Below are positions 10,450 through 29,448 of a DNA stretch of 36,248 nucleotides, one piece after another. The DNA lies in contig JBMZAL010000001.1 in NCBI GenBank assembly GCA_049611325.1, positions 1 to 36,248 of the forward strand, in the 5' to 3' direction. The translations under genes and the position numbers were made by a program. The stretch's first letter is position 1. Each line of letters starts with the position of its first letter. Below the pieces are notes generated by a model that was not told the DNA's origin, did no database searches, and worked only from the letters and a program-made list of their open reading frames with translations. Source of the stretch: Flavobacteriales bacterium (GTDB lineage: Bacteria; Bacteroidota; Bacteroidia; Flavobacteriales_D; Sanyastnellaceae).

Positions 10450-10626
10450 CGCAATCATTTGGTTAAGTGGGTGCATGCGACACACCCGAAAGCGAATTTC
10501 GGGTATTGTGGTCTACAAGGCCTCAAACGGAATGAGTTAACACGTTTTATTTAAGTTGCAACGTATTTCATGGTGTTGCCCGTTTGCCACCAACGTTCTT
10601 CGCCAACAAACCAAATCGATCGCAAG

Positions 10627-13501: not shown

Positions 13502-16500
13502 TCACCAGACCATCAATGGGATGTTTCCGGATGGAGTGGAGGTCCCCACTTGAATGAAGTAGGTGCCTGGTGCAATGGATTCTCGAATGGGGTACCCCAC
13601 AACGCCTGGGGATTTGACAATGCCTGTTCCCTGCCAGACGACACGTCCGTCAGACGCCAACACGCGGATGGCGGTTTGGTCGTCGTCCAAGCCAGAGACA
13701 AACACCATGTTGTGCTCGGGGCTCATGGGGTTGGGGAACAAGTTCAGTGCAGGAGCTTCAGAGAAGTCGCCCACATTGTCTGTCGACACCTCGTCGTCCA
13801 CTTCGTCACAAATGCCATCTCCGTCGAGGTCGTTGAGGCAGTTGCCGTCACAATCGTAGTACAGCTCGGCATAAGTGCACGATCCGTCGTTGTCGGTGGC
13901 CGTGGCGTCGAAGTTGCAGGCATCTGCGTCCTCACATCCTGCAATTTCCAATTCATCACACACGCCGTCGCCGTCGGTGTCGTTCAGGCAGGCGCCATCG
14001 CAGTCGAAGAACGTCTCTGCGTACTCGCACGAGCCGTCGTTGTCGGTGGCTTCCGTTTGGAAGTTGCACGCTGACGCGTCATCGCATCCTGCGATTTCCA
14101 ACTCGTCACACACGCCGTCGCCATCGGAATCCTGGATGCAGTTGCCATAGCAGTCGTAGTAATCCTCTGCCCAAAAGCACAGGTCGTTGTTCGCCACAGT
14201 CGCTGCTGCGTTGTAGTTGCAAGCGTCTTCCACAGTGCATCCAGCTTCGTAAGAGCATTCTTCGCCTGACGCGGGAGGATCTGTGGCTTCGGGGTTGTAG
14301 TTGCTGGCAATGATGTCTTGACATCCCGAGATTTCCAATTCATCGCACACCAGGTCGTTGTCGGTGTCGTTGATGCAGCCGTCGCAGGTGTAAAATTCTG
14401 CGGGGTAGGTGCAAGAACCGTCGTTGTCGGTGGCATTGGCATCGTAGTCGCATGCGGTCACATCGTCACACCCTGCGATTTCCAATTCGTCGCACACGCC
14501 GTCGCCGTCGAAGTCGTTCTGACAGACACCCTCGCAGTTGTAGTAGTTCTCCGGGTAGGTGCACGATCCGTCATCGTCTGTCGCAGCGGCGTCAAAGTTG
14601 CAGGCATCTTGGTCTTGACAGCCAGCGACTTCCAATTCGTTGCAAATGCCGTCGCCATCGCTGTCTTGGAGACATTGGCCATTGCAGTCGTAGTAGGTCT
14701 CAGCGTAGGTGCATGATCCGTCGTTGTCGGTGGCCGCTGTGTCGTAGTCACAGGCAGTCACGTCGTCGCAACCCGCGATTTCCAATTCGTCACACACGCC
14801 GTCGTCATCCGCGTCGTTCGTGCATGTGCCGTCGCAGTCGTAGTGGGCGGCGGGGTAGTCGCATCCGCTGGAAATCGTCGCATTGACGTCGTAGTTGCAG
14901 CCGCTGGGGTCGGTGCACCCTGCGCACGAGGTGAACTCGCATGAGCCGTCGTCGTCAGAGGCGTTGGCGACATAGTTGCACGCGTCGCTGTTGGTGCACC
15001 CCTCGGTTTCCAACTCACAACACACGCCGTCTCCGTCTTCGTCGCAGTGGCATTGGCCGTTGCAGTCGTAGTACTGTTCTGCGAATGTGCAGCTGCCGTC
15101 GTCCAAAATGGCACCAGGCGTGAAGTTGCACGCGGTCACATCTTGGCAACCAGAGACCTCGGCGGCATCGCAAATGCCGTTGTTGTTTTCGTCTGCGCAG
15201 CCCTCCATTTCTGAGACTTCTGAAGCGCACACTTCCCACGAACCCTCGTATCCGTAGTCGTTCGTGGTGTTGTCCAACTCGACCAGAACGTCGCCCGCGG
15301 CGTTGGTGAGCATCATGCTCCCTCCGATGTCACAGATGCCGTCGTCACCGAAATCAATGGAGCAGAGGCCATCGCCGTTGGTGTCTTCCATGATCAAGGT
15401 GTAACAGCCCACCGGAAAGCACCCGCTGCTTTCGTACGTGGCCATATTGATGGGGTAGTCGCCTCCACTCATGATGGCCTCGCCTTCGCTGTCTTCGATG
15501 CGCCAGCTGATTTCGTTGGCCCACGTGTCCGTGTTGAGCGTCATGGTCCAGTAGTCACTCTCCGCCAAGACGATGCGCTGGACGCTTTGGTCGTTTTCTG
15601 GGAAGTCGTCTTGGACGTTGCCCAACAAGCGAACTTCGAGAGCCAATTCGTTGGTGTCTGCGGCAAGGGCCAATTCAGGCAGCATCACCTCGATACTGGA
15701 TCCGGCCTCCACGCTTTCTTCGTGAATGGTTGTGAACGGGCTGTGTCCGTTGACAGAGGTGGTCAATTCAAATCCCGTGACTGTCTGCGTGCCAAAGTTG
15801 GTCACGATGACTGTGGGCGTCAGTGAGGGGAGGCATGTGGATTCCCCCACATTGCCCAATCCAGCGATGGTCAAGTCGCGTTCTGTCACGGCCAGGCCGC
15901 CCAAGCTCTCCAAAAGGCTTGAACGTGATGATTCCAAACAGGCACGCATCCGGTCACGCTGACCGGCGGTGAACATGTTCTTGCACGTTTCCTGCGCGTA
16001 GTCCATGTAGTTCTCAACTTGGGCACCGTCACAGGTTGGGCTGGTGCATCCAGAGCTGTTGGAGATGGTCGATGGAGTGTCACACACCAAATCACCTTGC
16101 GTTTCGCAATTCGTTTCCGACGTGCACGAAGTGGTGTTGGAGAAGGTGTGGTAGAGTGAAAGGTGGTGGCCCATTTCGTGGGTGACCGTTTTGTTCAAGG
16201 TGCGTCCAGGCTTCAACTCACCCACCAAACCAAAGGCATTGTAGAGCACCACCAAGCCGTCGCGTGCGTCGTTGGTGGGGCCCAAGTAAGCATAACCTTG
16301 GATGCCGTTTCCGCCATCGTTGCCATTGATTTCAGGGACCACGAAAATGTTGATGTAGTCGTCGCCATACCATGTGGTCAAGCTCTTGACCGCGGTCTGG
16401 TCTGCAGCATCGTCGTCTTGACCGTTGCTGATGCCATGTTGCGCGTACCCAGGCACGCTGTTTCCATTGACGCGTACAATGCCGTTGGTGGGCGCTCCAT

Positions 16501-16879
16501 CTGGCGTGCGTCGCGCCATTTCAAACTGGATGAAGGTGTCGGCTCCCTCGCTGTCGCTCACGCGGTTGCGGAAATCGTCGTTCATGCCATCGATGGCAGA
16601 CAAGATTTGGGCATCTGTGATGTTTTCCTCCACACCGACGGGCGATCCGCGGTGAATCACGTGAACCACCACAGGTAGGGTGTGCACATCCATGTTTCGA
16701 TTGGACGAAGCCTGCAAACGTTGAACCGCGGCACGCACGGCGTCAAAGTTCCGGGCGTAGGGTTCAGAGGTGGCCATTTCGGTGGCGTGAAGCGCGTCGG
16801 CCGAGCAGGGCTCAGTGGATTGGGCCGAAGAAAAGAAGCTCATGGTGAGCAGGGCGAGGATGGAAAAGAAAACACGCAT
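13502..16879 (-). CDS. Secreted M43-family (cytophagalysin/pappalysin-type) zinc metalloprotease with a Cys/Asp-rich repeat stalk and a T9SS type A C-terminal domain
   Basis: Signal peptide MRVFFSILALLTMSFFSSAQS from ATG 16879. The zinc motif is HEMGHHLSLYHTF, followed downstream by ENYMDYAQETC and FTAGQRDRM, which are M43 signatures. A TD-W..E..W module is followed by ~9 composite repeats. The C-terminus is LNLFPNP...APGTYFIQV...MVW. The ORF-track start at 16975 is rejected because that extension contains the upstream gene's terminator. Confidence 0.9.
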   Translation of the reverse strand: MRVFFSILALLTMSFFSSAQSTEPCSADALHATEMATSEPYARNFDAVRAAVQRLQASSNRNMDVHTLPVVVHVIHRGSPVGVEENITDAQILSAIDGMNDDFRNRVSDSEGADTFIQFEMARRTPDGAPTNGIVRVNGNSVPGYAQHGISNGQDDDAADQTAVKSLTTWYGDDYINIFVVPEINGNDGGNGIQGYAYLGPTNDARDGLVVLYNAFGLVGELKPGRTLNKTVTHEMGHHLSLYHTFSNTTSCTSETNCETQGDLVCDTPSTISNSSGCTSPTCDGAQVENYMDYAQETCKNMFTAGQRDRMRACLESSRSSLLESLGGLAVTERDLTIAGLGNVGESTCLPSLTPTVIVTNFGTQTVTGFELTTSVNGHSPFTTIHEESVEAGSSIEVMLPELALAADTNELALEVRLLGNVQDDFPENDQSVQRIVLAESDYWTMTLNTDTWANEISWRIEDSEGEAIMSGGDYPINMATYESSGCFPVGCYTLIMEDTNGDGLCSIDFGDDGICDIGGSMMLTNAAGDVLVELDNTTNDYGYEGSWEVCASEVSEMEGCADENNNGICDAAEVSGCQDVTACNFTPGAILDDGSCTFAEQYYDCNGQCHCDEDGDGVCCELETEGCTNSDACNYVANASDDDGSCEFTSCAGCTDPSGCNYDVNATISSGCDYPAAHYDCDGTCTNDADDDGVCDELEIAGCDDVTACDYDTAATDNDGSCTYAETYYDCNGQCLQDSDGDGICNELEVAGCQDQDACNFDAAATDDDGSCTYPENYYNCEGVCQNDFDGDGVCDELEIAGCDDVTACDYDANATDNDGSCTYPAEFYTCDGCINDTDNDLVCDELEISGCQDIIASNYNPEATDPPASGEECSYEAGCTVEDACNYNAAATVANNDLCFWAEDYYDCYGNCIQDSDGDGVCDELEIAGCDDASACNFQTEATDNDGSCEYAETFFDCDGACLNDTDGDGVCDELEIAGCEDADACNFDATATDNDGSCTYAELYYDCDGNCLNDLDGDGICDEVDDEVSTDNVGDFSEAPALNLFPNPMSPEHNMVFVSGLDDDQTAIRVLASDGRVVWQGTGIVKSPGVVGYPIRESIAPGTYFIQVGTSTPSGNIPLMVW
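13505..13747 (-). other. T9SS type A C-terminal sorting domain of the M43 protease
   Basis: LNLFPNPMSPEHNMVFVSGLDDDQTAIRVLASDGRVVWQG...IAPGTYFIQVGT... fits the Por secretion-tail pattern: [FY]PNP near the start, a G.Y strand and ~80 aa in length. Confidence 0.8.
13805..15210 (-). repeat. About nine in-frame composite ~50-aa repeats (TSP type-3-like Asp loop plus Cys motif)
   Basis: The unit is [YF]YDC[DN]G.C..D.DGDG[VI]CDELE[IV]AGC.D..ACN[FY]D..ATD[ND]DGSCTY[AP]E. At DNA level the block gcgatttccaattcgtc[ag]cacacgccgtcgcc recurs near 13930, 14088, 14470 and 14770. Confidence 0.8.
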
Positions 16880-16950
16880 GAGATGGAGTGTGGATAGGGT
16901 TTGATCTCGCTTACGGGGTTGGGTCCACTCCGGTTTCAGTTTCATCCAAC

Positions 16951-16983
16951 GAAAAACCCCGAGGGACGAATCCATCGGGGTTT
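16951..16983 (-). terminator. Rho-independent terminator of the FKBP/yaaA transcript
   Basis: 9-bp stem, 16954-16962 paired with 16975-16983 (minus-strand reading aaaccccga...tcggggttt), with a 12-nt loop and then tttttc on the minus strand. It sits 36 nt downstream of the FKBP stop. Confidence 0.75.
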
Positions 16984-17741: not shown

Positions 17742-18514
17742 GCCGGCAAAGTTCGGATGAAAACCTTCTTGTTGGGCGTCGACTCCTCAGAAGAAAACCG
17801 GTACCCCAATTCTTGGAATCCCTCGAGTTCTGAAGGGGAGTGGATGCCTTGAAGAAGGACGTGTCGCGCCATGGCGCCACGGGCGGTTTTGGCGAAGGAG
17901 GAAATGGCCTTGAGCTGGCCATTGCGGCGTTCGAGGAAGGTGCACGTCACCACACGTTTGGCCAGGACGCCATGCAAGGCCACGTCTCCGTATTCCGCAC
18001 TGGCCAAATTCAAAATGAGGGATCCTTCGTCCAAGGCATCCGCGCATTCGGTCACCGCTTGCGGAAGGCGCTTTTTCCAAAAGGAAGCCATGTTCTTGAA
18101 GGCTGTGTCGTGACACCACCGCTCGCCCATTTCCAAGCGCACGGGCATGAATCGATCCATGGGGCGGAGCAATCCGTACACGCCATGAAGAATGCGCAAG
18201 CGATGTTGGGCCGCAAGCAGTGACTCGTAGGGCAGGCTGGGCAGGTCCATGGATTTGAATGCGTCACCGCGGAACGTCCATCCGGCCACGGCGTCGCCCT
18301 CAGAAGTCCAAGCTTGGTGCCAAGCGTGCACTTTGGTGGCAAGCGCATCACTGAGATGCAGTTGCGCTTGGGTTTGGGCCAGGGACCAACCCTTGAGGGT
18401 TTTCAAAATTTCGGTGGCTTCTTTGATCAGCACAGGTGAGGACAAAGCCTCATCCAGGGTGGCGTCTGGTCGGCCGGGGTTCAGCGTTTTGGCAGGGGAG
18501 AGAAGCACGAGCAT
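17738..18514 (-). CDS. yaaA: Peroxide stress protein YaaA (UPF0246/DUF328)
   Basis: The canonical N-terminus MLVLLSPAKTLN and a length of 258 aa are typical of the family. Confidence 0.9.
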   Translation of the reverse strand: MLVLLSPAKTLNPGRPDATLDEALSSPVLIKEATEILKTLKGWSLAQTQAQLHLSDALATKVHAWHQAWTSEGDAVAGWTFRGDAFKSMDLPSLPYESLLAAQHRLRILHGVYGLLRPMDRFMPVRLEMGERWCHDTAFKNMASFWKKRLPQAVTECADALDEGSLILNLASAEYGDVALHGVLAKRVVTCTFLERRNGQLKAISSFAKTARGAMARHVLLQGIHSPSELEGFQELGYRFSSEESTPNKKVFIRTLPA

Positions 18515-18551: not shown

Positions 18552-20414
18552 ATGAAGAATGCCAAAAGCCTCGCAGGATGGCTGACCTGTGTCTTTGTCT
18601 TGGGCTGTGTGGTCGTTGCTCAGGCGCAATCGCCTTGTCCGTCGGACTCCTTGCCCTTGAACGTCAGCGTGACCACCGATGCTTGGGGTTACGAATTGTA
18701 TTGGGAGCTCATCGATGCCTCTGCGGCATGCGGTGATGGAACGGCCTTGCTGTGGGGAGGCAATCCAGAAGTTGGATGTGGTGATGGCGTGGCGGGACTT
18801 CCCAGTGAGGTCTACGACAACAACACCTTGTACACGTCCGCGACCATTTGCGTGAGTGAAGAAGACAGCTTGGTGCTCGTTCACAGAGACAGCTATGGCG
18901 ATGGAGGCAGTGACTTCGCGATTGCACTTGGCGGCAATGAGGCCTTTGGGTTTGACGGCTCTGGCAACGGGAACGATTGGTCCTTTCAGCCTGTGCTTGC
19001 CGTGGCGGATTTGCCTTGTCTTGCCGAATCCATCTTCGCAGACACCATGACTTGGGTGGGGTCAACGGAGGATGCATCTGTCTCTCCGAATGAGCCTTCG
19101 CCACCGGCTTTGGGATGCGGCGCGTTTGGCGGTTGGTGTGAAGCGGGCTTGGAAAATACTGTGTGGCTGTCTTGGGAAGTGCCTGCAGGAGGAGGTGTCT
19201 TTGAAATCAGCACCTGCAACGAACAAACCACATTCGACACGCAGCTTGCGCTTTGGGGCGTGACAGATTGCGCTGATTTTGCGTCTTACGAACTCGTGAA
19301 TGCCAACGACGATGCGGGCTGTGGTTTGGGGTCGTTCCGAAGCACCTTGTTGACGCCTTGTTTGGAAGGAGGGGAGACGATGATGCTTCAAATCGACGGC
19401 TATTACGGCGCCGTGGGGACTGTGGAAGTGAGTGTCACGACCGCGGCGGCAGACGCTTGGACAGTGTCTGCGGGCGTGCAAGACCTGTCATGCAGCCTGT
19501 TGACTTCGTTCGACCCCAACGGATCGATTTCCGTCAACAGCAACGTGGGCAACGAGGCCGTGGCCTGGATGTGGGAGGGGCCGTTTGGCTTCACTTCCGA
19601 CGCCGCCAGCATTGGCCCCCTTCTCCCCGGAGACTACACGCTCGAGGCATCCTTCTGTGGCCAAACGTTCTCTGCGTCTTACGAGGTGGAAGAGCCCGAA
19701 CCCTTGGAGCTTTTGGTTTCGCTTAGCCCCGATTGCGCATTGGGCTCCACCTCTGGTGTGGTGGACATCGAAGGCGGACAGGGCGTGGCGACGGCCACAT
19801 GGACGTCCGGGGCATTCGGCACCACAGGGGTGGAGGTCAGTGGACTTCCAGGCGGCCTGTTCGAGGTCGATGTGGTCGATGAAAATGGCTGCGAAGCTTC
19901 GGAAGTCGTTTGGGTTGAAAGCGTCGGTGTGCCCGAGGTGGACTTGGGACCGGATCAATTTGGATGTGCCGGGGATGCTTTTACCTTGCTCGCCCCCTTG
20001 GGTGCAGGGTTGACGTACGCATGGACCACAGGCTCCTCGGGTGCGTTGGCTGTGGTCCAAACCGACGCGCCCGGAACACTCGTCGTCGGGGTGGAGGTCA
20101 CCGACGGAGCGGGATGCACCGGTGCGGATGCGGTCATTTTGACCTTGGACGATTGCACGTCCGCGTTGGACGATTTGGGACAGGACTTCCGCTTGAATGC
20201 GTACCCCAATCCGTTTGTGGATGACATCCAAGTGGAACTCCCTGAAAGCCATGCCGGAGGAACGCCTCAATTGCGCGACCTGTCGGGTCGCGAGGTGCCG
20301 TGTGTTTGGACGGTGCAAGGAACCACTTACCGCACCCATGTGGAGGTGCCAGCAGGGGTGTACTTCTTGTCAGTGGCTCCAGGCTTGGAAACCATTCGCT
20401 TGGTCAAGCAATAA
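18552..20414 (+). CDS. T9SS-secreted multidomain protein (TD-W module, PPC-like domain, two SprB-type repeats, type A C-terminal domain)
   Basis: Signal peptide MKNAKSLAGWLTCVFVLGCVVVAQAQ. The N-terminal module carries VTTDAWGYELYWEL...HRDSYGDGG. SprB-like repeats are present (DLSC...GSISVN...W.WEGPFGF...LLPGDYTLEA; DCALGSTSGVVDIEGGQG...SGLPGGLFEVDVVDENGC). The C-terminal domain FRLNAYPNPFVDD...PAGVYFLSV...LVKQ spans 20187-20411. Confidence 0.85.
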   Translation: MKNAKSLAGWLTCVFVLGCVVVAQAQSPCPSDSLPLNVSVTTDAWGYELYWELIDASAACGDGTALLWGGNPEVGCGDGVAGLPSEVYDNNTLYTSATICVSEEDSLVLVHRDSYGDGGSDFAIALGGNEAFGFDGSGNGNDWSFQPVLAVADLPCLAESIFADTMTWVGSTEDASVSPNEPSPPALGCGAFGGWCEAGLENTVWLSWEVPAGGGVFEISTCNEQTTFDTQLALWGVTDCADFASYELVNANDDAGCGLGSFRSTLLTPCLEGGETMMLQIDGYYGAVGTVEVSVTTAAADAWTVSAGVQDLSCSLLTSFDPNGSISVNSNVGNEAVAWMWEGPFGFTSDAASIGPLLPGDYTLEASFCGQTFSASYEVEEPEPLELLVSLSPDCALGSTSGVVDIEGGQGVATATWTSGAFGTTGVEVSGLPGGLFEVDVVDENGCEASEVVWVESVGVPEVDLGPDQFGCAGDAFTLLAPLGAGLTYAWTTGSSGALAVVQTDAPGTLVVGVEVTDGAGCTGADAVILTLDDCTSALDDLGQDFRLNAYPNPFVDDIQVELPESHAGGTPQLRDLSGREVPCVWTVQGTTYRTHVEVPAGVYFLSVAPGLETIRLVKQ

Positions 20415-20417
20415 AGC

Positions 20418-21491
20418 TCAGGCGCGCCACTTGGCAAGGCGCTGACAGGCTTCTTCCAGGTTGGCTGTGGCCACATCGAGGTGGGTGACGAGCCTGACTT
20501 TGTTGGGGCCAAACGCAAAGCATGCGATGCCCATGTCCGAAAACGCTTGAACCACGGTGTCTGCGGTGGCTTCGGGGAGCGTGAAAATGACAATGTTGGT
20601 GTCCACCGCATCGACGTGGGCCACATCAGGGTGTGCACCCAACGTTTGCTCAAGCATGCGGGCATGACGGTGATCTTGTTCCAACCTGGAGACATGGTGG
20701 TCAAGCGCGTACAGTCCGGCCGCGGCAAGCACTCCTGCTTGTCGCATGCCGCCGCCCATGACTTTTCGCGACCGATGGGCTTCCGCAATGAAGGACTCCG
20801 ATCCCACGAGCACCGAGCCCACGGGGCATCCCAGTCCCTTGCTCAGGCACAACGACATGCTGTCGAAGAGGCGGCCATAATTCTGCAAGGCCGAGGCATC
20901 GCCCCATTCGCCGCGCTGCACCCACGCGTTCCACACGCGGGCGCCGTCCAAGTGAAAGCCGAGGCCCCGCGCGCGACTGGCTTCAGAAAGGCGCGTGAGT
21001 TCGTTCACGTTCCAAATGGCGCCACCCCCTTTGTTGCAGGTGTCTTCCACGGCGACCAGCGAGGTGCGCGCGTAATGGCTGTCGGCGGGATTGATGTTGG
21101 CGATCATCTCCTCCACATCATACCGGCCACGGTCGCCATGCATCAAGCGCACGGATGCTCCTGAATTTCGGGCGATGCCGCCTCCTTCGTAGTTGTAGAT
21201 GTGGGAGAGCTTGTCGCAAATGACTTCATCGCCCGGGCGGGTGTGCACCTGAATGGCGATTTGGTTCGTCATGGTGCCGGAAGGGCAAAACAGCGCCGCT
21301 TCGTGACCGGTCAATTCCGCGCAGCGTTGCTGCAGGGCTTGGATGCTGTCATCTTCCCCAAACACGTCGTCTCCGACGGGGGCGTCAAGCATGGCCTGAC
21401 GCATGCCGGAAGAGGGTTGCGTGACGGTGTCGCTGCGCAGGTCCACCAACAGATTGGACGGCGGCGGTTGGAGTTGACTTGACTGGGCCAT
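20418..21491 (-). CDS. ltaE: Low-specificity L-threonine aldolase (PLP, beta-eliminating lyase family)
   Basis: Contains DLRSDTVTQPSSGMRQAM, FCPSGTMTNQIAI, and the PLP-binding Lys in SLCLSKGLGCPVGSVL. I chose ATG 21491 (MAQSSQL...). The 70-aa upstream extension in the ORF track has no homology-like features. Confidence 0.9.
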   Translation of the reverse strand: MAQSSQLQPPPSNLLVDLRSDTVTQPSSGMRQAMLDAPVGDDVFGEDDSIQALQQRCAELTGHEAALFCPSGTMTNQIAIQVHTRPGDEVICDKLSHIYNYEGGGIARNSGASVRLMHGDRGRYDVEEMIANINPADSHYARTSLVAVEDTCNKGGGAIWNVNELTRLSEASRARGLGFHLDGARVWNAWVQRGEWGDASALQNYGRLFDSMSLCLSKGLGCPVGSVLVGSESFIAEAHRSRKVMGGGMRQAGVLAAAGLYALDHHVSRLEQDHRHARMLEQTLGAHPDVAHVDAVDTNIVIFTLPEATADTVVQAFSDMGIACFAFGPNKVRLVTHLDVATANLEEACQRLAKWRA

Positions 21492-21543
21492 GCCACGAAA
21501 ATACACGAGGGTTTCGAAGCGGCGTGTAGGGTATCTTGGGGGC

Positions 21544-23691
21544 ATGAAGACTTGGACTGTGAAAAGCGCGCTGACGCTTGTTTTGGGCTTGGCATGCATG
21601 AACGTGCTGCAGGCCAAAGAAGGCATGTGGATCCCCACGTTGTTGAAGGTGGTGGAAGGGGACATGCAGGCGATGGGCCTCAAGCTGACCGCTGAGGACA
21701 TTTACAGCATCAACCACAGCAGTTTGAAGGACGCTGTGGTGCATTTCAACGGCGGGTGCACCGCGGAAATGGTGAGTGCAGAGGGCTTGCTTCTGACCAA
21801 TCACCACTGTGGTTATGGCCAAATCCAACAGCACAGCACCGTCGAGAACGACTTGTTGACCAATGGGTTTTGGGCCATGACCCGCGAAGCAGAACTGCCC
21901 AATCCCGACCTGACCTGCACCTTCATCGACCGCATCGAAGACGTGACCTTGCAGCTGTCACGTGCCTGTGTCGGATTGTCTGGCGAGGCGCGAGAGAAGC
22001 GCATGCAGGAAGAAATGGAGGCCATCGTCAAGCGCGCGACAGAAGGGAAAGGGCTCGAAGGCCGCGTGGTGGCATTTGACTTTGGGAACAGCCACTACCT
22101 CATCACCAGCCGGGTGTTTCGCGACGTTCGCCTCGTGGGCGCGCCACCCTCGGCGGTGGGGAAGTTTGGCGGGGATACGGACAACTGGGTTTGGCCCCGT
22201 CACACGGGAGACTTCAGCGTGTTCCGCATCTACGCCGACGCCGACAACAACCCAGCCGATTACAGTGCCGACAACGTGCCTTACACGCCTGTGCATCACT
22301 TCCCCGTGAACGTGGATGGTGTGAAGGATGGCGATTTCACCATGGTCTTTGGCTTCCCCGGCCGCACGGAGCAGTACTTGACGTCTGACGCAGTGGAGCA
22401 CGTCATCACGCGGTTGAACCCCATGCGCATCGCCATGCGTGACGAAGGTTTGGCGGTGATCAATGCGGCACGTGCTTCGAGCGACGCACTTCGCATCGCC
22501 TACGCGGCCAAGCAGAGCAGCGTGGCCAACGCCTGGAAGAAGTGGAAGGGCCAAAACCGCGGCCTCACCGAGCTCCATGCGCTGGACAAGAAGCGCGCCT
22601 TAGAGGCCCGTTTGAATGCGGCCACAGGCAGTTCCGTGGTGGAGGATTTGGCGGCCCTGAATGCAGACTACTTCCCGTTTTTGGAAGTGCGCGGCTTGTT
22701 CATCGAGTTGGCATACTACGGTCCAGACATCCTGAATTACGCCCACAGTTTCTCAGGCCTCATCGAGGGTGCTGTCGAAGGCGAAAAGCGGGACCAGCTT
22801 CTTGCCAAGTTGCGTGCCAACGAAGCTGGATTCCGCAAGGATTTTGACGCCACGGTCGACGAGCAACTCCTCGGCCGTTTGGTCGACGAGTACCTCGAAT
22901 GGATTCCTGAAAACCTCACTCCTGAGGGGCTTCGCGCCGAGGTTGCCAAGGCCGGTGGTGGTCCTGCGTGGGCGGCCAAGGTGTTTGGCAAGAGCGTGTT
23001 TGACAACGCGGACGGCATGGAGAAGTTGTTGACTTCTGGAAGCGCCAAGGCGTGGGGTAAATTGACCAAGGATCCCGTGTACATCTGGATTGAGAACCTG
23101 CGCGCCCACTACTTCGCTCAGATCGCGCCGGAATATGGCAGATTGAGGGGGGAAATTGAATTGGCGTCAGGCGCCTATACCAAAGCTTTGCGACGGGCGT
23201 TCCCCGAGGAAGTGTTCCCCGTCGATGCGAACAGCACGTTGCGATTGACTTACGGGAAAGTGGAAGGCAGCGCGCCTTACGATGGCATGCAGTACAATCC
23301 GTTGAGCACGGCGCGCGGCATCCTTCAGAAGTACGTGCCTGGAGATCCTGATTTTGACATGCCAGAACGCTTGGTGGAGCTGTTGGAAGCACGTGATTAC
23401 GGAGACTACGCCAACGAAGATGGGGAGCTTGTGGTCTGCTTTACAGGCAGCAACCACACCACGGGCGGCAATTCAGGGTCTCCCGCTTTGGACGCCAACG
23501 GTCACCTCGTGGGCATCAACTTTGACCGGAGTTGGGAAAGCACCATGAGCGACATCCTTTTTGACGGCTCACGTTGCCGCAACATCATGGTCGACATTCG
23601 GTACGTCCTCTGGGTGATGGACGTGTATGCAGGAGCAGGCCATCTCGTCGAGGAGATGACGCTGATCACTCAGGAAGAGGGGACAGAATAA
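21544..23691 (+). CDS. S46 family serine dipeptidyl-peptidase (DPP7/DPP11-like)
   Basis: Signal peptide MKTWTVKSALTLVLGLACMNVLQA followed by KEGMWIP. The catalytic His is in LLLTNHHCGYG and the catalytic Ser in TGGNSGSPALDANGHLVGINFDR. Length is ~715 aa. Confidence 0.9.
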   Translation: MKTWTVKSALTLVLGLACMNVLQAKEGMWIPTLLKVVEGDMQAMGLKLTAEDIYSINHSSLKDAVVHFNGGCTAEMVSAEGLLLTNHHCGYGQIQQHSTVENDLLTNGFWAMTREAELPNPDLTCTFIDRIEDVTLQLSRACVGLSGEAREKRMQEEMEAIVKRATEGKGLEGRVVAFDFGNSHYLITSRVFRDVRLVGAPPSAVGKFGGDTDNWVWPRHTGDFSVFRIYADADNNPADYSADNVPYTPVHHFPVNVDGVKDGDFTMVFGFPGRTEQYLTSDAVEHVITRLNPMRIAMRDEGLAVINAARASSDALRIAYAAKQSSVANAWKKWKGQNRGLTELHALDKKRALEARLNAATGSSVVEDLAALNADYFPFLEVRGLFIELAYYGPDILNYAHSFSGLIEGAVEGEKRDQLLAKLRANEAGFRKDFDATVDEQLLGRLVDEYLEWIPENLTPEGLRAEVAKAGGGPAWAAKVFGKSVFDNADGMEKLLTSGSAKAWGKLTKDPVYIWIENLRAHYFAQIAPEYGRLRGEIELASGAYTKALRRAFPEEVFPVDANSTLRLTYGKVEGSAPYDGMQYNPLSTARGILQKYVPGDPDFDMPERLVELLEARDYGDYANEDGELVVCFTGSNHTTGGNSGSPALDANGHLVGINFDRSWESTMSDILFDGSRCRNIMVDIRYVLWVMDVYAGAGHLVEEMTLITQEEGTE

Positions 23692-23695
23692 CGGC

Positions 23696-23815
23696 TCAGG
23701 AAGCCATCATGCCAATGGCCACCACAACGATGGCGAAGAGGAAGAGTGCAAAAACAACGGGCCCGCCAATTTCGTTTTGCTCGGGCTCAAGGTGGTCGTG
23801 GTGATCGTGTGCCAT
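23696..23815 (-). CDS. Candidate 39-aa small membrane protein (below the ORF-track length cutoff)
   Basis: Minus-strand ATG at 23815 and TGA at 23696-23698. Translation: MAHDHHDHLEPEQNEIGGPVVFALFLFAIVVVAIGMMAS, a His/Asp-rich head plus one clean TM helix. It fills an otherwise empty gap. Confidence 0.3.
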   Translation of the reverse strand: MAHDHHDHLEPEQNEIGGPVVFALFLFAIVVVAIGMMAS

Positions 23816-23962: not shown

Positions 23963-26365
23963 ATGATTCTCTCGCCTGCACGCGCTCTTCGGAGCCTCTC
24001 CTTGTTCGCCATGTCCCTTGGTGTTGTTGTGGTCAACCAGGCCTCGGCCCAATGTTCTGAGTCAGAGAGCGCCCTCGTTGTGGAAGTCACCACGGATGGC
24101 TACCCAAGCGAAATTTCTTGGGAAGTGGTCATGGGCGGGGAAGTCGTGTTGAGCGGAGGGCCGTATTCTGAGGGCGGCACGATGTACGCAGACACGTTGT
24201 GTTTTCCATCCTCTGACGAGCCTTGCATTCAATTCGAGATTTTTGATTCGTTTGGCGACGGCATTTTTGATCCCGGAGGGTACAATGTGTACCTCGATGG
24301 CCAAACTGTGGCCTCCGGCGGTGACTACGGCGACTCGGATGGCGCCTTGTTCGCGTGTGCTCCGGGGGAAACGTGCAATGATGCGATTGCGTTGACCGAA
24401 TCAGACTACGGCACGGTCGCCTCTCCCGGAGACTCGTACTGGTACACCTTCACGCCAGAGTCCAACGGCATGTACAGCTTCAGCTCGTGCGGAAACGGCT
24501 GTGACACGCGGTTGTACATCTACGACTACTGCCAAATGGGCAACTTTGACGACACCAACGAAGGCTCCATCTACTATGACGACAATCAAGGAGGTTGCGG
24601 CGACGAGGCGCAATTGACCGTGTTGCTCGAGGCAGGTGTGACGTATTGGATTCGTTGGGCCTCTTTCGACGGTCCTTGCGCTGAGGCTTGGAGTTGGGAA
24701 TTCGGCTTTGCGGGTCCGCCCGCGGGGTGCATGGATCCTGAAGCCTGCAACTACAATCCCATGGCGGAGGAGGACAACGGCTCATGCATCTACCCGGGCG
24801 ATCCCGCGTGCAACGGTCCTGACCTCGTGGTGGTGGAGGAGGCCATCATCAGCAGTCTGCAGACGCAGGTGATGCAGGTGAGCGAATCGGATTGCTACAT
24901 CGATGAGGGATGCCTCAATGGTTACGGCGACCGTGAACTCGTTCGTTTCACGACCCACATCAAAAACATCGGTGACCTGGATTATTACATTGGGGTCCCC
25001 AGCGAGGATGGCAACAACCAGTTCGAGTGGGGAGATTGCCACGGCCACTGGCACCACAATGGCTACGCCAAGTACGATTTGTTTGACCTGAATGGAGATT
25101 TGATCCCAATCGGATTCAAGAACGGATTCTGTGTGATGGATTTGGAGTGCAGCGATGGCGGCACTTACCAATACGGTTGTGGCAACATGGGCATTTCTGC
25201 GGGATGTGGAGACATCTACGGCGCAGGGTTGAGCTGCCAGTGGATTGATGTCACCGACGTGGAAGACGGAACGTACTACCTCGTGGTCCGGGCCAACTAT
25301 GAATTCATTCCCGACGCGTTGGGCCGTGAAGAGATGGACTACGACAACAACCACGCTGCGGTGTGCATCAACCTCGACCGTACATCAGGTGCTTTGGTGG
25401 TGGAACACGTGGGGGGGTGTGAGCCCATCTACGACTGCAACGGGGTGATCTTTGGCACCGCCGAGATGGATTGCAATGGCGAGTGCGGAGGCACTGAACT
25501 CGTGGGCGACCTCGACAACAACGATGCGCAAGAGTATGCAGATGCTGTGGCTTACGTGGAAGGCATCCTCGGCAACGACTTGACAGCCTCTGCCTGCACG
25601 GACATCGACCAAGATGGCCACATCACGGTGAGCGATGCCGCGTTGATGTCGCAGTGCCAATGGTTCAATGAGGCTCATCAGCACCCAGACAGCAGCGGCG
25701 TGCACGACCGTTGCGAATTCCCCGTCCAAGAAATCATCAACATCTACGACACGGTGCATTTCATGGTGGCCGACGTGAATTGGGGCATGAACTTCTTCGA
25801 TGTGCACGTCTTGAATCCCCACAACCGCATCGTGGGGTACGAGCTTGACTTCTCTGGTGTCAGCATCAGCGATGCGGTGAGTTTGGCGGACCCGATCAAC
25901 TACGACATCGCGCCGTCGTTTGTGCCCGGGGGCAACAAGGTCATTGGCCTCAGCTACGACGGAGCGTCCTTCCACAAAAACCTTGAGTGGGTTCCTTTCC
26001 TGCGGGTGTACTGGGCCGACGCCGACGAGGAAGTGTGTTTGGCCGATGTGGTGGATGTGGTCAATGAGGCCTACGAGAACACCCTGCATACGCTTGTGGA
26101 TGGATGTGCCACCGACGTCATCACCATGGAAGCCGCCAAGTCGGTTCAGGTAATGCCCAACCCCATGGGCGACTTCAGCACGGTTCGGTTCCCACTTGGC
26201 GTTTGGGACCTGGAAGTCATGGACGTGCAAGGGCGCATCATCCTTCAGCGTCGCGTTTCTGGCAGAACAACATCGCTCCTCCGCGAGGACCTCGGGGCCG
26301 GGAGCTACGTCTTGCGTTTGCAAAATGAACAAGCATCAGCCGTGGTTCGTTTTGAAGTTCGTTGA
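23963..26365 (+). CDS. T9SS-secreted lysyl-oxidase-like (LOX) copper amine oxidase with accessory modules
   Basis: Signal peptide MILSPARALRSLSLFAMSLGVVVVNQASAQ. Domains in order are a TD-W module (24053-24358), a PPC-like domain, one GCMDPEACNYNPMAEEDNGSC motif (24725-24793) and a LOX catalytic domain (24815-25381). These are followed by EF-hand/dockerin-like loops, a cohesin-like beta domain and a type A T9SS domain (26144-26362, VQVMPNPMGDFSTVRF...GAGSYVLRL...FEVR). Confidence 0.9.
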   Translation: MILSPARALRSLSLFAMSLGVVVVNQASAQCSESESALVVEVTTDGYPSEISWEVVMGGEVVLSGGPYSEGGTMYADTLCFPSSDEPCIQFEIFDSFGDGIFDPGGYNVYLDGQTVASGGDYGDSDGALFACAPGETCNDAIALTESDYGTVASPGDSYWYTFTPESNGMYSFSSCGNGCDTRLYIYDYCQMGNFDDTNEGSIYYDDNQGGCGDEAQLTVLLEAGVTYWIRWASFDGPCAEAWSWEFGFAGPPAGCMDPEACNYNPMAEEDNGSCIYPGDPACNGPDLVVVEEAIISSLQTQVMQVSESDCYIDEGCLNGYGDRELVRFTTHIKNIGDLDYYIGVPSEDGNNQFEWGDCHGHWHHNGYAKYDLFDLNGDLIPIGFKNGFCVMDLECSDGGTYQYGCGNMGISAGCGDIYGAGLSCQWIDVTDVEDGTYYLVVRANYEFIPDALGREEMDYDNNHAAVCINLDRTSGALVVEHVGGCEPIYDCNGVIFGTAEMDCNGECGGTELVGDLDNNDAQEYADAVAYVEGILGNDLTASACTDIDQDGHITVSDAALMSQCQWFNEAHQHPDSSGVHDRCEFPVQEIINIYDTVHFMVADVNWGMNFFDVHVLNPHNRIVGYELDFSGVSISDAVSLADPINYDIAPSFVPGGNKVIGLSYDGASFHKNLEWVPFLRVYWADADEEVCLADVVDVVNEAYENTLHTLVDGCATDVITMEAAKSVQVMPNPMGDFSTVRFPLGVWDLEVMDVQGRIILQRRVSGRTTSLLREDLGAGSYVLRLQNEQASAVVRFEVR
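24815..25381 (+). other. Lysyl oxidase catalytic domain (PF01186-like)
   Basis: GPDLVV...DCYIDEGCL...RELVRFTTHIKNIGDLDY...FEWGDCHGHWHHNGYAKYDLFDL...GFKNGFCVMDLEC...GCGDIYGAGLSCQWIDVTDVEDGTYYLVV...DYDNNHAAVCI is colinear with the human LOX catalytic domain as remembered (PDLV...LLRFPQRVKNQG..DF...WEWHSCHQHYH...GHKASFCLEDT.C...[25 protein letters not shown]...DYTNNVVRCDI). Confidence 0.85.
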
Positions 26366-29300
26366 TGAGAACCCCAATCACTTTGAAGACCACTCCCATG
26401 CGCCTTTGGAACACGCTTTTCTTGCTGGCATGTTTGCCCACGATCGGACTGGCACAAGTCGTCATCAATGAATTCTCGTGCAGCAACTACACCCTCGGCA
26501 TTGCGGGGGACAACGAAGATTTTGTCGAGTTCTACAATCCCAGTGGGGCCAATGTGGATTTGGGCGGGTACTTCTTGTCAGACAACCCTGCCAACCCGGA
26601 CAAATTTGAAATCCCTGCAGGCACCGAAGTTCCGGCAGGGGGGTATTTGATGGTGATGTGTTCTGCCGAAGGGGAACTTCTGACCAACCTCTATGTCGGG
26701 GGATTCTTGAACACCAATTTCAAAATCAACCAGTGTCAAGGGGAGTCGCTTGTTTTCTCAGATCCGGCCGGCAACATTTTGGAGAGTTACACCTATGGTG
26801 CTGACATCCACACCACGCAGGCGGACCACAGCTGGGCGAGAAGTGTGGATGGAGATGCCTCCTGGGAGGTTTGTGTGATGCCTTCACCAGGTGCGGCAAA
26901 CGGGATGGATCCGTTTGACATGTACACAGGGTATGCACCGACCCCCATTTTCAATGTGGAAGCGGGTTATCACACAGGGGCGCTGAGCATCACGCTTTCG
27001 ACACCTGCAGGGTTCGACATTTACTACACATTGGATGGTTACACGCCCACCGAGGGCAGCACACTCTACACCGGTCCCATCGACATTTCATCGACAACGG
27101 TTGTCAGGGCCATCGCATTCGATCCAAACGACGATGTTCCACCCAGTGTGGCACCGAGTTTTGTGGCGACCAACACCTACTTCCTTGGGGCAGATGCCCA
27201 CTCCATTCCAGTGGTTTCAGTCAGTGGAAACGGTCAAGAAGATGGCGCGTGGGGCTGGGGAGGCAATGACGAGTTGGCCCACGTCGAGTTTTTCCATGCG
27301 GATGGCACATTTTGGGTGGAGGCCTCGGGGGACAGCAATGAACACGGAAATGACAGCAATGCCTACGGTCAACGCGGGTTTGATTGCATCATCCGAGATC
27401 AAATGGGGTACAATCATGCCTTTGAGGCTGAGCTCTTCCATGTGAAGGAAAGAGATGAATACCAGCGTTTGATTTTCAAGGCTGCGGCCAACGACAACTA
27501 TCCCTTCGAGCCAGGAGCGCACATTCGGGATGCATACGTGCACACCCTGAGTCACCTTGCCGATTTGAAGCTCGATGAGCGGACCAACGAGAGCTGCATT
27601 GTCTACCTCAATGGCCAGTACTGGGGCGTGTATGAATACCGTGAGAAGGTGGACGACACGGACTTTACGGAAGAGTACTACGACCAAACCCGTCATTTCG
27701 TGGACTTCCTCAAAACATGGGGAGGGACTTGGGAAGAGTACGGTTCAGGCGACGATTGGTACGACCTCGTCACCTTCTGCACAACGCAAGACATGACGGT
27801 GGATGCGAACTACGAATACGCGGTGTCGCAATTGCACCCCATGTCGTTGATCGACTATTTCATTCTGAACAGTTACATCGTTTCGGCAGACTGGTTGAAT
27901 TGGAACACGGCGTGGTGGCGTGGCCGCCATCCCGATGGAGATGCCAAACGTTGGCGCTACGCCTTGTGGGACATGGACGCGAGTTTTGGGCACTACATCA
28001 ACTACTCGGGGGTTCCCGACACAGGGCCCACTGCGGATCCATGCAACCCAGAAAGCATGGGCAATTTGGGTGGGCAAGGACACATTCCGGTGCTCAATGC
28101 GTTGCTCGAGAACGAGACTTTTTGGAACACCTACATCAACCGCTGGGCTGACTTGGGGAACACGGCGTTCACATGCACGAACATGCATGCAGTGCTCGAC
28201 AGCATGGTGCAGGTCATCACGCCCGAGATGCCACGCCAAATGGTTCGCTGGGGCGGCAACATGGCAGGCTGGGAAAACGAGCTTCAGGAATTGCGCGACT
28301 TCATTGACAGCCGCTGCGAGGACGAAGTGGTGGGGGGCATGGAAGACTGCTACGACGTGGTGCCTGTGAACCTGACCTTGGACATTGTTGGACAAGGAGA
28401 GGTCCAGGTGAACTCGGTGGATTTCAACCCCTCCATGGTGCCCTACACTGCGTGGTATTTTGCCGATGTTCCGGTGGCGCTTGAGGCGGAAGAGTCGTTT
28501 GGGGTGGCCTTTTTGTACTGGGAGGTCGTGTCCGGGGACGTCACGATAGCCGACGTCACAGACCCTGTACTGCCCTTGACACTCACTGGGGATGCACACA
28601 TTGTGGCGCACTTTGGAATCCCCGTACCTCCTGAGGAAGTGACCTTTTCTGTCAGCCCTGTGGGTTCTGGATTCATCGTGATTGACGGCACCACCATCAA
28701 CACATACCCCACCACGGATTTGGTGAATGTGGGGAACCACAACTTGCTTGCACAGCCCAACGAGTGGTGGGCCTTTTCCCACTGGTCTTGGAACGGCAAC
28801 GTCATCAACCCCGATGCCGGAGCCTCCCCCGCGCAATTGGAGGTCTTCGAACCAGGTTCGGTGACAGCGCATTTCGTTGAAATCCCACACACGAACTTGA
28901 CTGTGCTGGTGTCTCCACCTCAGGCCGGTCAAGTGCGGGTCGTGGACATGGCGATGGTGGAGGACAGTTGGAACATGTCTTTTGAGCCCGTGGGGCCGGT
29001 GGTGTTTGAGGCCCTGACAGAAGAAGAGTGGCAGTTCAGCCATTGGGAAGTGGCCGTGTCCACGCCCTTGCCAGAGGACAAGGCCAATCCCATGGCCCTG
29101 ACCTTGACGGACGTGCCCTACGAAATTGTGACGGCGCACTTCGAGCCGGTGGAGTTCCACCTGTACGTACCCAACGCATTCACGCCTGACAACGATGGGG
29201 TGAACGACGCGTTCCATCCTCTGGGAGCGGGATTTGAGGGAAGTTCATACTCCTTCAGTGTCTTCAACCGTTGGGGGGAGGTGGTGTTTGCCACTGACGA

Positions 29301-29448
29301 CCCAGAGCAGCCGTGGATTGGCCAAAACAACCAAAAGCTAGGCACCCACTTCGTTCCTGACGGGGTGTACGGATACCGTGTCGAGGCACAAGGCTACCAC
29401 GAACTTGTTCCCACCGTGTTGCGGGGGACAGTGACGGTCGTTCGTTGA
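26365..29448 (+). CDS. T9SS (type B C-terminal domain) secreted LTD-CotH protein (CotH kinase-like)
   Basis: Signal peptide ...MRLWNTLFLLACLPTIGLAQ. The lamin-tail domain is VVINEFSCSN...DFVEFYNPSGANVDLGGYFLSD...AGGYLMV. A chitobiase-C-like segment is present (DIYYTLDGYTPT..STLYTGPIDISSTTVVRAIAF). The CotH core is (LIFKAAANDN...IRDAYVHTLSH...VYLNGQYWGVYEYREKVD). Three ~85-aa repeats each end in [VI][VT]AHF. The gliding-motility type C-terminal domain is YVPNAFTPDNDGVNDAFHP...GVYGYRV (29155-29445). Possible starts are ATG 26365 (shares one base with the LOX stop), ATG 26398 and the ORF-track TTG 26362. Confidence 0.88.
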   Translation: MRTPITLKTTPMRLWNTLFLLACLPTIGLAQVVINEFSCSNYTLGIAGDNEDFVEFYNPSGANVDLGGYFLSDNPANPDKFEIPAGTEVPAGGYLMVMCSAEGELLTNLYVGGFLNTNFKINQCQGESLVFSDPAGNILESYTYGADIHTTQADHSWARSVDGDASWEVCVMPSPGAANGMDPFDMYTGYAPTPIFNVEAGYHTGALSITLSTPAGFDIYYTLDGYTPTEGSTLYTGPIDISSTTVVRAIAFDPNDDVPPSVAPSFVATNTYFLGADAHSIPVVSVSGNGQEDGAWGWGGNDELAHVEFFHADGTFWVEASGDSNEHGNDSNAYGQRGFDCIIRDQMGYNHAFEAELFHVKERDEYQRLIFKAAANDNYPFEPGAHIRDAYVHTLSHLADLKLDERTNESCIVYLNGQYWGVYEYREKVDDTDFTEEYYDQTRHFVDFLKTWGGTWEEYGSGDDWYDLVTFCTTQDMTVDANYEYAVSQLHPMSLIDYFILNSYIVSADWLNWNTAWWRGRHPDGDAKRWRYALWDMDASFGHYINYSGVPDTGPTADPCNPESMGNLGGQGHIPVLNALLENETFWNTYINRWADLGNTAFTCTNMHAVLDSMVQVITPEMPRQMVRWGGNMAGWENELQELRDFIDSRCEDEVVGGMEDCYDVVPVNLTLDIVGQGEVQVNSVDFNPSMVPYTAWYFADVPVALEAEESFGVAFLYWEVVSGDVTIADVTDPVLPLTLTGDAHIVAHFGIPVPPEEVTFSVSPVGSGFIVIDGTTINTYPTTDLVNVGNHNLLAQPNEWWAFSHWSWNGNVINPDAGASPAQLEVFEPGSVTAHFVEIPHTNLTVLVSPPQAGQVRVVDMAMVEDSWNMSFEPVGPVVFEALTEEEWQFSHWEVAVSTPLPEDKANPMALTLTDVPYEIVTAHFEPVEFHLYVPNAFTPDNDGVNDAFHPLGAGFEGSSYSFSVFNRWGEVVFATDDPEQPWIGQNNQKLGTHFVPDGVYGYRVEAQGYHELVPTVLRGTVTVVR

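Follow-up and report, generated by a model that had tools for sequence, protein, structure and literature searches.

A complete lysyl oxidase-family protein with a type IX secretion sorting domain in uncultured marine Flavobacteriales

Why would a member of the Flavobacteriales carry a lysyl oxidase (LOX), an enzyme classically associated with animals? The question is raised by a 36,248-nucleotide stretch of DNA (GenBank assembly GCA_049611325.1, contig JBMZAL010000001.1, positions 1 to 36,248; hereafter the window), in which one gene encodes a multi-domain protein of 800 amino acids (aa). The original prediction, made from the letters of the sequence, placed in this protein a complete LOX catalytic domain at 24815-25381 (aa 285-473) and read its copper ligands and the two precursors of the lysine tyrosylquinone (LTQ) cofactor as intact. 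Is the domain truly a LOX? Is it kept in working order? How does the protein reach the exterior of the cell, and what would it do there? The 800-aa protein is a complete member of the LOX family whose active-site residues stand in register with those of human LOXL2, and we consider it likely to be an extracellular copper/LTQ amine oxidase; this estimate covers the identity of the enzyme and its location, not its role.

The catalytic domain and its active site

The first question is answered by sequence profiles. The Pfam family PF01186 (Lysyl_oxidase) matches aa 311-473 (E=3.2e-33; 115.5 bits, cut-off 20.4), spanning positions 26-196 of the 204 in the profile, and a phmmer search of the sequences in the PDB returns human LOXL2 (5ZE3) as the single significant relative (E=2.4e-23, aa 274-463). 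When the query is replaced by a family profile of 41 homologues, the E-value against 5ZE3 improves to 1.2e-28. A match of this kind is far beyond chance. The features that define it are the following, with LOXL2 numbering obtained by adding 317 to the chain index of 5ZE3 and residue roles taken from PMC5899467.

23963..26365, plus strand: LOX-family gene, 800 aa, multi-domain, stop codon included (open reading frame list and translation)
24818..25420, plus strand: lysyl oxidase catalytic domain, aa 286-486 (PF01186, 5ZE3 and the domain-only model)
25040..25054, plus strand: copper His triad H360/H362/H364, equivalent to LOXL2 H626/H628/H630
25118..25120, plus strand: LTQ precursor lysine K386, equivalent to LOXL2 K653
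25217..25219, plus strand: LTQ precursor tyrosine Y419; its LOXL2 counterpart Y689 additionally serves as a metal ligand in the precursor state
Disulfide 1: C311-C359, equivalent to LOXL2 C573-C625
Disulfide 2: C317-C425, equivalent to LOXL2 C579-C695
Disulfide 3: C390-C406, equivalent to LOXL2 C657-C673
Disulfide 4: C396-C415, equivalent to LOXL2 C663-C685
Calcium ligands: D287, L288, E457, D459, N462 and N463, equivalent to LOXL2 D549, L550, E722, D724, N727 and N728

The copper motif W-x-W-x-x-C-H-x-H-x-H reads FEWGDCHGHWH here, and FEWGDCHGHWHH holds the three ligands (25040-25054) together with a fourth histidine, H365 (25055-25057). K386 lies within GFKNGFC, Y419 within GCGDIYGAG, and CQWIDVTDV is present as well. 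All of these sit at the codons given by the original prediction, and column-for-column alignment to 5ZE3 brings the histidines, K386 and Y419 onto their LOXL2 counterparts. The catalytic domain of LOXL2 has five disulfide bonds (PMC5899467); C468 and C486, which fall outside or offset from the alignments, probably correspond to the fifth, C732-C746. The spacing between the LTQ lysine and tyrosine is 33 residues, as first counted, against 35 in human LOX (sequence in File S5 of PMC4448552).

Does the domain also fold like a LOX? In the full-length AlphaFold2 model the flanking domains are confident and the LOX region is poor, with a predicted local distance difference test score (pLDDT) of 30-50. 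A model of the domain only (aa 280-490, 99 aligned sequences) reaches a pLDDT of 84.7 and a predicted template modelling score of 0.83. Compared with the PDB by Foldseek, this model matches 5ZE3 with E=2.9e-14, a query template modelling (TM) score of 0.73 and 31% identity over 213 columns, and 5ZE3 is its sole strong match (the runner-up has E=2e-3). Neither of the outcomes that would have spoken against the original prediction, a missing LOX profile match or an active site out of register, was obtained. The likeness to LOXL2 and other animal LOX extends over Pfam family, predicted fold, HxHxH copper site, LTQ lysine and tyrosine, four disulfides with a probable fifth, and calcium site. What differs is the setting: the SRCR domains and pro-peptide of the animal LOX and LOXL proteins are replaced by β-sandwich, dockerin-like and cohesin-like modules and a sorting domain, the Lys-Tyr spacing is 33 instead of 35-36, the context for N-glycosylation is missing, and the host has neither collagen nor elastin.

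Is the active site kept in working order? Across 41 full-length homologues (49-85% identity), and across a set of 99 homologues, the catalytic, cysteine and calcium positions are invariant, D459 excepted. At greater distance, in the 151 LOX domains of the best 150 representatives of 50%-identity clusters, the His triad is kept in 147 and the LTQ lysine and tyrosine likewise in 147, while the complete 14-site pattern, consisting of the triad, the LTQ lysine and tyrosine and nine cysteine positions, is found in 140. The LOX domain is also the best conserved part of the protein, with 76% mean identity against 33-66% for the other domains; the signal peptide-like region is the least conserved, at 17%. 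Invariance of the active site within the most conserved domain argues for purifying selection on a working active site.

The one prokaryotic LOX for which we found biochemical tests in the literature searched is HTU-LOX of the archaeon Haloterrigena turkmenica. Pestov et al. showed, by following the release of H2O2, that it is an active amine oxidase which accepts many different amines and is sensitive to 3-aminopropionitrile (BAPN), and they suggest a role in nitrogen availability (PMC6452851). HTU-LOX resembles the 800-aa protein in its His triad, its LTQ lysine and tyrosine and an N-terminal signal or anchor sequence. It differs in being archaeal, only ~30% identical, a single domain of ~290 aa, not a type IX secretion system (T9SS) cargo, and without most of the cysteines, including those equivalent to C311, C317, C359, C396, C415 and C425. 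Its activity supports activity in prokaryotic members of the family. Could the LOX domain of the 800-aa protein nevertheless be a non-catalytic binding or scaffold module, a pseudo-enzyme? HTU-LOX gave no activity in native cells and had to be truncated before it became active (PMC6452851), and four of the 151 domains have lost at least one copper histidine, three of them the LTQ lysine and tyrosine too. Set against this, the copper, LTQ and disulfide positions are all intact here and in the 140 domains with the full pattern, and they do not vary among homologues in which roughly half of the remaining positions are different. A pseudo-enzyme is thus very improbable.

Quinone cofactors made post-translationally are also found in the copper amine oxidases, which use topaquinone (TPQ), and in the LodA/GoxA-type lysine and glycine oxidases of marine bacteria, which use cysteine tryptophylquinone (CTQ); these enzymes carry out oxidative deamination of primary amines with release of H2O2 and NH3, and the LodA-type enzymes are extracellular. 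The folds and cofactors of the TPQ and CTQ enzymes are unrelated to those of LOX. LOXL2 has no overall structural similarity to copper amine oxidases (PMC5899467). The 800-aa protein belongs to neither the TPQ nor the LodA/GoxA families.

Export signals and flanking modules

How would such an enzyme gain access to the outside of the cell? The remaining features of the gene bear on this point.

23963..24049, plus strand: signal peptide-like N-terminus, aa 1-29, MILSPARALRSLSLFAMSLGVVVVNQASA followed by QC (read by eye, and helix in the model)
24050..24355, plus strand: β-sandwich domain 1, aa 30-131 (AlphaFold2 pLDDT ~87-90)
24356..24718, plus strand: β-sandwich domain 2, aa 132-252, resembling PPC and collagenase collagen-binding domains (structure only)
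24719..24817, plus strand: Cys-rich linker, aa 253-285, GCMDPEACNYNPMAEEDNGSCIYPGDPAC (strongly conserved; low model confidence)
25421..25732, plus strand: dockerin-like segment, aa 487-590, in which DLDNNDAQE and DIDQDGHITVSD resemble EF-hand loops (sub-threshold profile scores)
25733..26122, plus strand: cohesin-like β-sandwich, aa 591-720 (model pLDDT 72-90; Foldseek)
26147..26362, plus strand: T9SS type A C-terminal sorting domain, aa 729-800 (TIGR04183)

The original prediction had given the protein a signal peptide and a T9SS tail. The tail stands: the NCBIfam model for type A sorting domains, TIGR04183, matches aa 731-797 (E=3.3e-6; 27.0 bits, cut-off 23), aa 729-799 form a confident β-sandwich in the model with structural matches to 4g5a and 5m11 (PorZ), and a similar T9SS-like C-terminal domain is present in 99 of 150 family representatives. 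The N-terminus is signal-like: read by eye, it begins with basic residues, continues as a hydrophobic helix and reaches an ASA-Q site, and the model has a helix at aa 4-28, from which we infer that aa 1-29 may be a Sec signal peptide; Grau-Bove et al. list SignalP hits for a nearly identical ocean-survey fragment (PMC4448552). The protein would then cross the inner membrane via Sec, directed by this peptide, and the outer membrane via the T9SS, which would recognise the type A sorting domain and deliver it to the cell surface or the medium.

The modules between the two signals are best described by their resemblances. Foldseek of the whole model returns the tandem collagen-binding domain of ColG (5iku, prob 1.00, 229 columns) and the PPC domain of Bacillus anthracis collagenase (5sv5, target-relative TM 0.61). 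The search reports no query coordinates; judged by size and order, the 5iku match would map to the two N-terminal β-sandwiches. No Pfam match to PPC (PF04151 superfamily) appears in aa 30-266 even at E<=5, and hhalign finds no match to the PPC domains of Sphaerotilus, so that membership of PPC by sequence was rejected and the resemblance is structural only. The Cys-rich linker that follows (CxxxxACNYNP...) received no family assignment; it has 75% mean identity and its C256, C262, C275 and C283 are invariant. Behind the LOX domain, where model confidence is low, Pfam Dockerin_1 scores under its cut-off on aa 487-590 (E=0.11-0.19), and the family profile matches the type I dockerins of Clostridium thermocellum (1daq/2mte) weakly, with E=0.037 at positions 508-559. 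The cohesin+FN3 construct 2w1n (prob 1.00, again with no query coordinates reported) probably falls on aa 591-720, a region in which Pfam finds no match.

Binding-type domains ahead of a LOX domain have been seen elsewhere. The PPC-PPC-CHB_HEX_C-LOX protein of Sphaerotilus natans and the multi-domain LOX of myxobacteria are likewise secreted and carry N-terminal β-sandwich domains before LOX. The N-terminal domains of the Sphaerotilus protein, however, show no detectable sequence relation to those of the 800-aa protein (hhalign probability 0.3%), and both the Sphaerotilus and the myxobacterial proteins lack a T9SS domain and the C396-C415 pair, with R/Q/P and W in its place.

Extent of the family and its relation to animal LOX

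How widespread is this protein? Prokaryotic LOX had been thought of as sporadic, and this part of the original prediction did not survive. With the full-length query, at least 1,271 clusters at 90% identity are found at E<=1e-5 among the scored candidates, nearly all annotated with PF01186, with or without PF18962, and ~800 aa long; the full-length homologues in the protein-cluster search are 46-97% identical. When 1.84 billion cluster representatives were scanned exhaustively, a related LOX domain came up in 3,096 clusters at 50% identity, 314 of them at E<=1e-30, and in most of the top 150 representatives the LOX domain lies near residue ~270 of a protein of ~800 aa. A pattern scan of metagenome contigs gives at least 600 matches. 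Orthologues with 70-97% identity occur in 20 genome bins of uncultured marine Flavobacteriales/Bacteroidota, all of which share a common locus of YaaA, a 620-aa T9SS protein, a β-eliminating lyase, an S46 peptidase, LOX, a CotH-domain protein, EamA and an aminotransferase, and this locus is met again on dozens of contigs from metagenomes. Every named relative stems from a metagenome-assembled genome, and no cultured host turned up. NCBI already lists relatives as "lysyl oxidase family protein", "T9SS type A sorting domain-containing protein" or "hypothetical protein".

Some related Flavobacteriales genomes carry two or more LOX paralogues (contigs L021, 16887..18436, minus strand, and L031, 6001..8337, plus strand). 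One, a PKD+LOX protein of ~1,040 aa, lies a few kb from the orthologue. Another paralogue, without T9SS tail, stands at a different locus, once directly upstream of a TonB-dependent receptor, and the genome bin GCA_002746975.1 holds both the T9SS and the tail-less form. An apparent archaeal member, P0077 (54% identity; contigs L025-L028), labelled 'MAG: hypothetical protein [Euryarchaeota archaeon]', was rejected as such. Its contigs carry PseudoU_synth, UPF0102, DUF8429, LOX, CDP-OH_P_transf and PurS as in a Bacteroidetes bin, plus DUF4296 and UvrC, and with this Bacteroidota gene order the label is almost certainly a binning error.

Has the family been seen before? The 2015 survey of Grau-Bove et al. 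reported LOX in five bacterial phyla, including Bacteroidetes, and described most prokaryotic LOX as simple in architecture (PMC4448552). Its File S5 contains marine_metagenome_135033467, which matches aa 1-466 of the 800-aa protein almost residue for residue, and marine_metagenome 136914123, which matches the part from LOX to dockerin, so that the family was already recognised as LOX homologues at that time. These fragments are truncated and assigned to no organism, and they come without T9SS tail, full architecture, chromosomal context or Flavobacteriales origin. The search for LOX, Bacteroidetes and LTQ led only to PMC4448552, and no literature was found that links LOX to T9SS or describes a Bacteroidota LOX. 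The family is therefore a known one, abundant, annotated and present, unassigned, in the 2015 evolution dataset. New here are the full domain anatomy, the assignment to organism and locus, the family's extent, the CotH-domain gene as a recurrent neighbour and, in one bacterial clade, the opisthokont cysteine framework.

Where does this bacterial lineage stand relative to the LOX of animals? In the 2015 tree, environmental sequences group with opisthokont (animal and fungal) LOX, with a bootstrap of 73% and a posterior of 0.99; the paper gives these sequences no further identity (PMC4448552). The fragments of the present family are listed in its sequence and annotation files directly after two fungal sequences and may belong to the opisthokont-grouping clade. 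We aligned 49 LOX domains, among them the 800-aa protein with 19 cluster representatives, and, as outside groups, animals, ichthyosporeans, fungi, Acanthamoeba, myxobacteria, a beta-proteobacterium, Gemmatimonadetes, haloarchaea, Thaumarchaeota and an actinobacterium. A neighbour-joining tree (48 sequences, 188 columns, 200 bootstraps) recovers the flavobacterial-type clade as monophyletic in 197 of 200 replicates and animals plus ichthyosporeans in 185 of 200. The horizontal-transfer question for which a phylogeny had been proposed thus receives a firm clade and weak deep nodes: the exact split of opisthokonts plus flavobacterial type from the rest appears in 43-45 of 200. In the full-data tree the clade is sister to eukaryotic LOX, and opisthokont groups are its sister in ~42% of replicates. 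The tree neither confirms nor contradicts the published maximum likelihood and Bayesian grouping.

The cysteines add a second line. All animal, ichthyosporean, fungal and flavobacterial-type sequences sampled have the pair C396/C415, whose LOXL2 equivalent C663-C685 pins the strand bearing the LTQ tyrosine. Acanthamoeba, myxobacteria, Sphaerotilus, Gemmatimonadetes and both archaeal groups have R/Q/P/K and W in its place, Kutzneria has two serines, and the pair is likewise missing from two more distant bacterial representatives. Within the prokaryotic sample, only the flavobacterial-type clade has the complete opisthokont cysteine framework. This pattern agrees with the published grouping and is no proof of it, as convergence or incomplete sampling could give the same result. 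It is conceivable, and on balance doubtful, that the flavobacterial T9SS LOX is the environmental lineage placed with the LOX of animals, ichthyosporeans and fungi. It would then be, among prokaryotes, the nearest kin of the enzyme that cross-links the extracellular matrix of animals, and a candidate donor or ancient recipient in a transfer between marine Bacteroidota and an early opisthokont, in a clade defined by the shared derived C663-C685 bond.

Might the gene simply be eukaryotic contamination, or a very recent acquisition from an animal or a fungus? Its domain is 31-35% identical to animal LOX and has that full cysteine pattern, missing from the other prokaryotic LOX sampled. Yet the GC content is uniform across the window (0.54-0.61), the locus is shared by the 20 bins and the dozens of contigs mentioned above, and the protein ends in a sorting domain specific to Bacteroidota. 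The clade is internally about as divergent as animal LOX (mean identity 53% within the flavobacterial type and 47% within animals), and its pairwise identity to all outside groups is flat, at 30-38%, so that nothing suggests recent transfer. Contamination and recent transfer are refuted, with a residual chance close to nil; an ancient transfer, in either direction, is possible.

Gene neighbourhood and possible roles

What would the enzyme do outside the cell? By homology, H360, H362 and H364 would bind Cu(II), and Y419 and K386 would form LTQ autocatalytically. The mature enzyme would then convert primary amines, R-CH2-NH2 + O2 + H2O giving R-CHO + NH3 + H2O2. Likely substrates would be the ε-amino groups of peptidyl lysine, and possibly free amines and polyamines. 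The collagen-binding/PPC-like, cohesin-like and dockerin-like modules may, most plausibly, hold the enzyme on macromolecular substrates or partner proteins. To what end? Two neighbours in particular need to be introduced.

21490..23691, plus strand: S46 dipeptidyl-peptidase, upstream neighbour (PF10459, E=1e-207; conserved synteny with LOX)
26362..29448, plus strand: CotH-domain gene, 1,028 aa, with LTD, CHB_HEX_C/Fn3_assoc, CotH kinase-like and T9SS type B (CHU_C) domains (Pfam, TIGR04131)

The neighbourhood of the LOX gene is rich in peptidases and amino-acid catabolism, with an M43 metallopeptidase, the S46 peptidase, the β-eliminating lyase and the aminotransferase. On account of these genes, of the archaeal precedent and of the paralogue beside a TonB-dependent receptor, we tentatively favour a role in processing external proteinaceous material and amines, with release of ammonium and reactive aldehydes, as part of the protein and peptide scavenging of marine Flavobacteriales.

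The gene downstream speaks for another use of the same chemistry. The CotH-domain reading frame abuts the LOX stop codon, which overlaps a possible start, and no terminator-like site lies between the two; the true start is likely the ATG at 26398, and the two genes are possibly co-transcribed. They remain neighbours in relatives whose LOX identity is as low as ~57%, even where the flanks are rearranged. Could the enzyme generate allysine on surface proteins of its own cell, or on proteins of particles or a host, which then cross-link spontaneously into a surface layer or a covalent adhesion, maybe in concert with the CotH-domain protein? In animals, LOX is canonically a cross-linking enzyme (PMC4448552, PMC5899467), and collagen-binding-like, cohesin-like and dockerin-like modules suggest binding and assembly. 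These module assignments are, however, structure-only or sub-threshold. The pairing is also not universal: in one sub-clade (~54% identity) EamA follows LOX directly, and the CotH-domain gene is not found beside other LOX paralogues (the second, tail-less one sits at another locus) nor beside distant homologues of full architecture (36-49% identity), which rules CotH out as an obligate partner. No collagen-like or obvious lysine-rich substrate gene is seen in the window, and the authors of the 2015 survey judged cross-linking of bacterial collagen-like proteins unlikely (PMC4448552). We consider a structural role of this kind rather unlikely; the cross-linking of matrix, host or particle proteins put forward in the original prediction is plausible as one of several roles that the data allow.

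Or is H2O2 itself the useful product, with the secreted amine oxidase acting as an antimicrobial or biofilm-dispersal factor? LodA (the Marinomonas lysine ε-oxidase) and AlpP of Pseudoalteromonas work through H2O2, with an unrelated fold and a CTQ cofactor. The LOX reaction yields H2O2 stoichiometrically, the enzyme is predicted to be extracellular, and a YaaA peroxide-stress gene (17738-18514) belongs to the conserved neighbourhood. YaaA lies four genes away, though, on the opposite strand and within a broadly syntenic block, and no immunity or catalase gene stands beside the LOX gene. A generator of diffusible oxidant needs no modules for substrate binding or assembly, and LOX enzymes are slow catalysts. 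This possibility appears improbable.

Several points weigh against our preferred picture of an exported amine oxidase engaged in scavenging. The Pfam T9SS model PF18962 reaches 22.9 bits, under its gathering threshold of 27. Amine oxidase activity within the flavobacterial-type clade is presumed from homology, and LTQ formation cannot be read from a sequence. The LOXL2 crystal is a zinc-bound precursor in which the lysine and tyrosine are 16.6 Å apart (PMC5899467), and it therefore offers no template of the active state. The whole region is syntenic across the lineage, so adjacency need not mean functional coupling; nitrogen scavenging would be a role assigned by analogy only; and the CotH linkage and the dockerin/cohesin-like modules fit assembly or cross-linking at least as well.

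Other observations concern the surroundings. Four genes with T9SS signals lie within 16 kb (13502..16975, minus strand; 18552..20414, 23963..26365 and 26362..29448, plus strand), which makes this region resemble a gene cluster for surface or secreted proteins. The type A signals of the M43 metallopeptidase and the 620-aa protein are weak, only the domain of the LOX protein passes the cut-off, and the CotH-domain protein reaches 32.7 bits with TIGR04131 (type B), under the cut-off of 35. A relative of the 620-aa protein carries SprB repeats. The longest reading frames of the β-eliminating lyase (20418..21701, minus strand) and the S46 peptidase (21490..23691, plus strand) overlap head to head by ~210 nt; since the Pfam matches start at residue 87 of the lyase and 42 of the peptidase, the real starts are probably internal and the genes divergent. 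Farther upstream, 6282..9740 (plus strand; 1,152 aa) has AMPK1_CBM, CBM_48, an X25 pullulanase domain and CBM_20 as its only Pfam domains, with no glycoside hydrolase catalytic domain detected by Pfam, and its product may be a non-catalytic surface glycan-binding protein. The reading frames 2499..4604 (plus strand, 701 aa) and 10570..12069 (plus strand, 499 aa) match no Pfam or NCBIfam family significantly.

Between the S46 peptidase and LOX genes lies an unannotated reading frame of 39 aa, MAHDHHDHLEPEQNEIGGPVVFALFLFAIVVVAIGMMAS (23696..23815, minus strand), whose N-terminus is rich in His and for which one transmembrane helix is predicted. Across 19 related bins, in which LOX and S46 are only 72-97% identical, it keeps 82-100% identity, and it is still recognisable in a lineage with 53% LOX identity; it has no Pfam or NCBIfam match and is absent at the locus of the second LOX paralogue. 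Judged by this conservation it is a real, very strongly conserved small gene. A tie to the handling of a metal, perhaps copper, would be pure speculation.

What does the finding mean for these organisms and for the family? In uncultured Bacteroidota, both marine and freshwater, LOX emerges as a large and conserved family, most members of which are apparently T9SS cargo. With organisms assigned, the "environmental sequences" placed beside opisthokont LOX in 2015 would become a definite bacterial lineage, and the question of how animal LOX arose is easier to test; if the clade is indeed that environmental lineage, the ancestral 'animal-type' LOX would be open to study in bacteria. A bacterial LOX could also serve as a soluble, bacterially encoded model for LTQ biogenesis. 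In the ocean itself, an abundant extracellular amine oxidase of the Flavobacteriales would bear on the processing of dissolved and particulate protein nitrogen.

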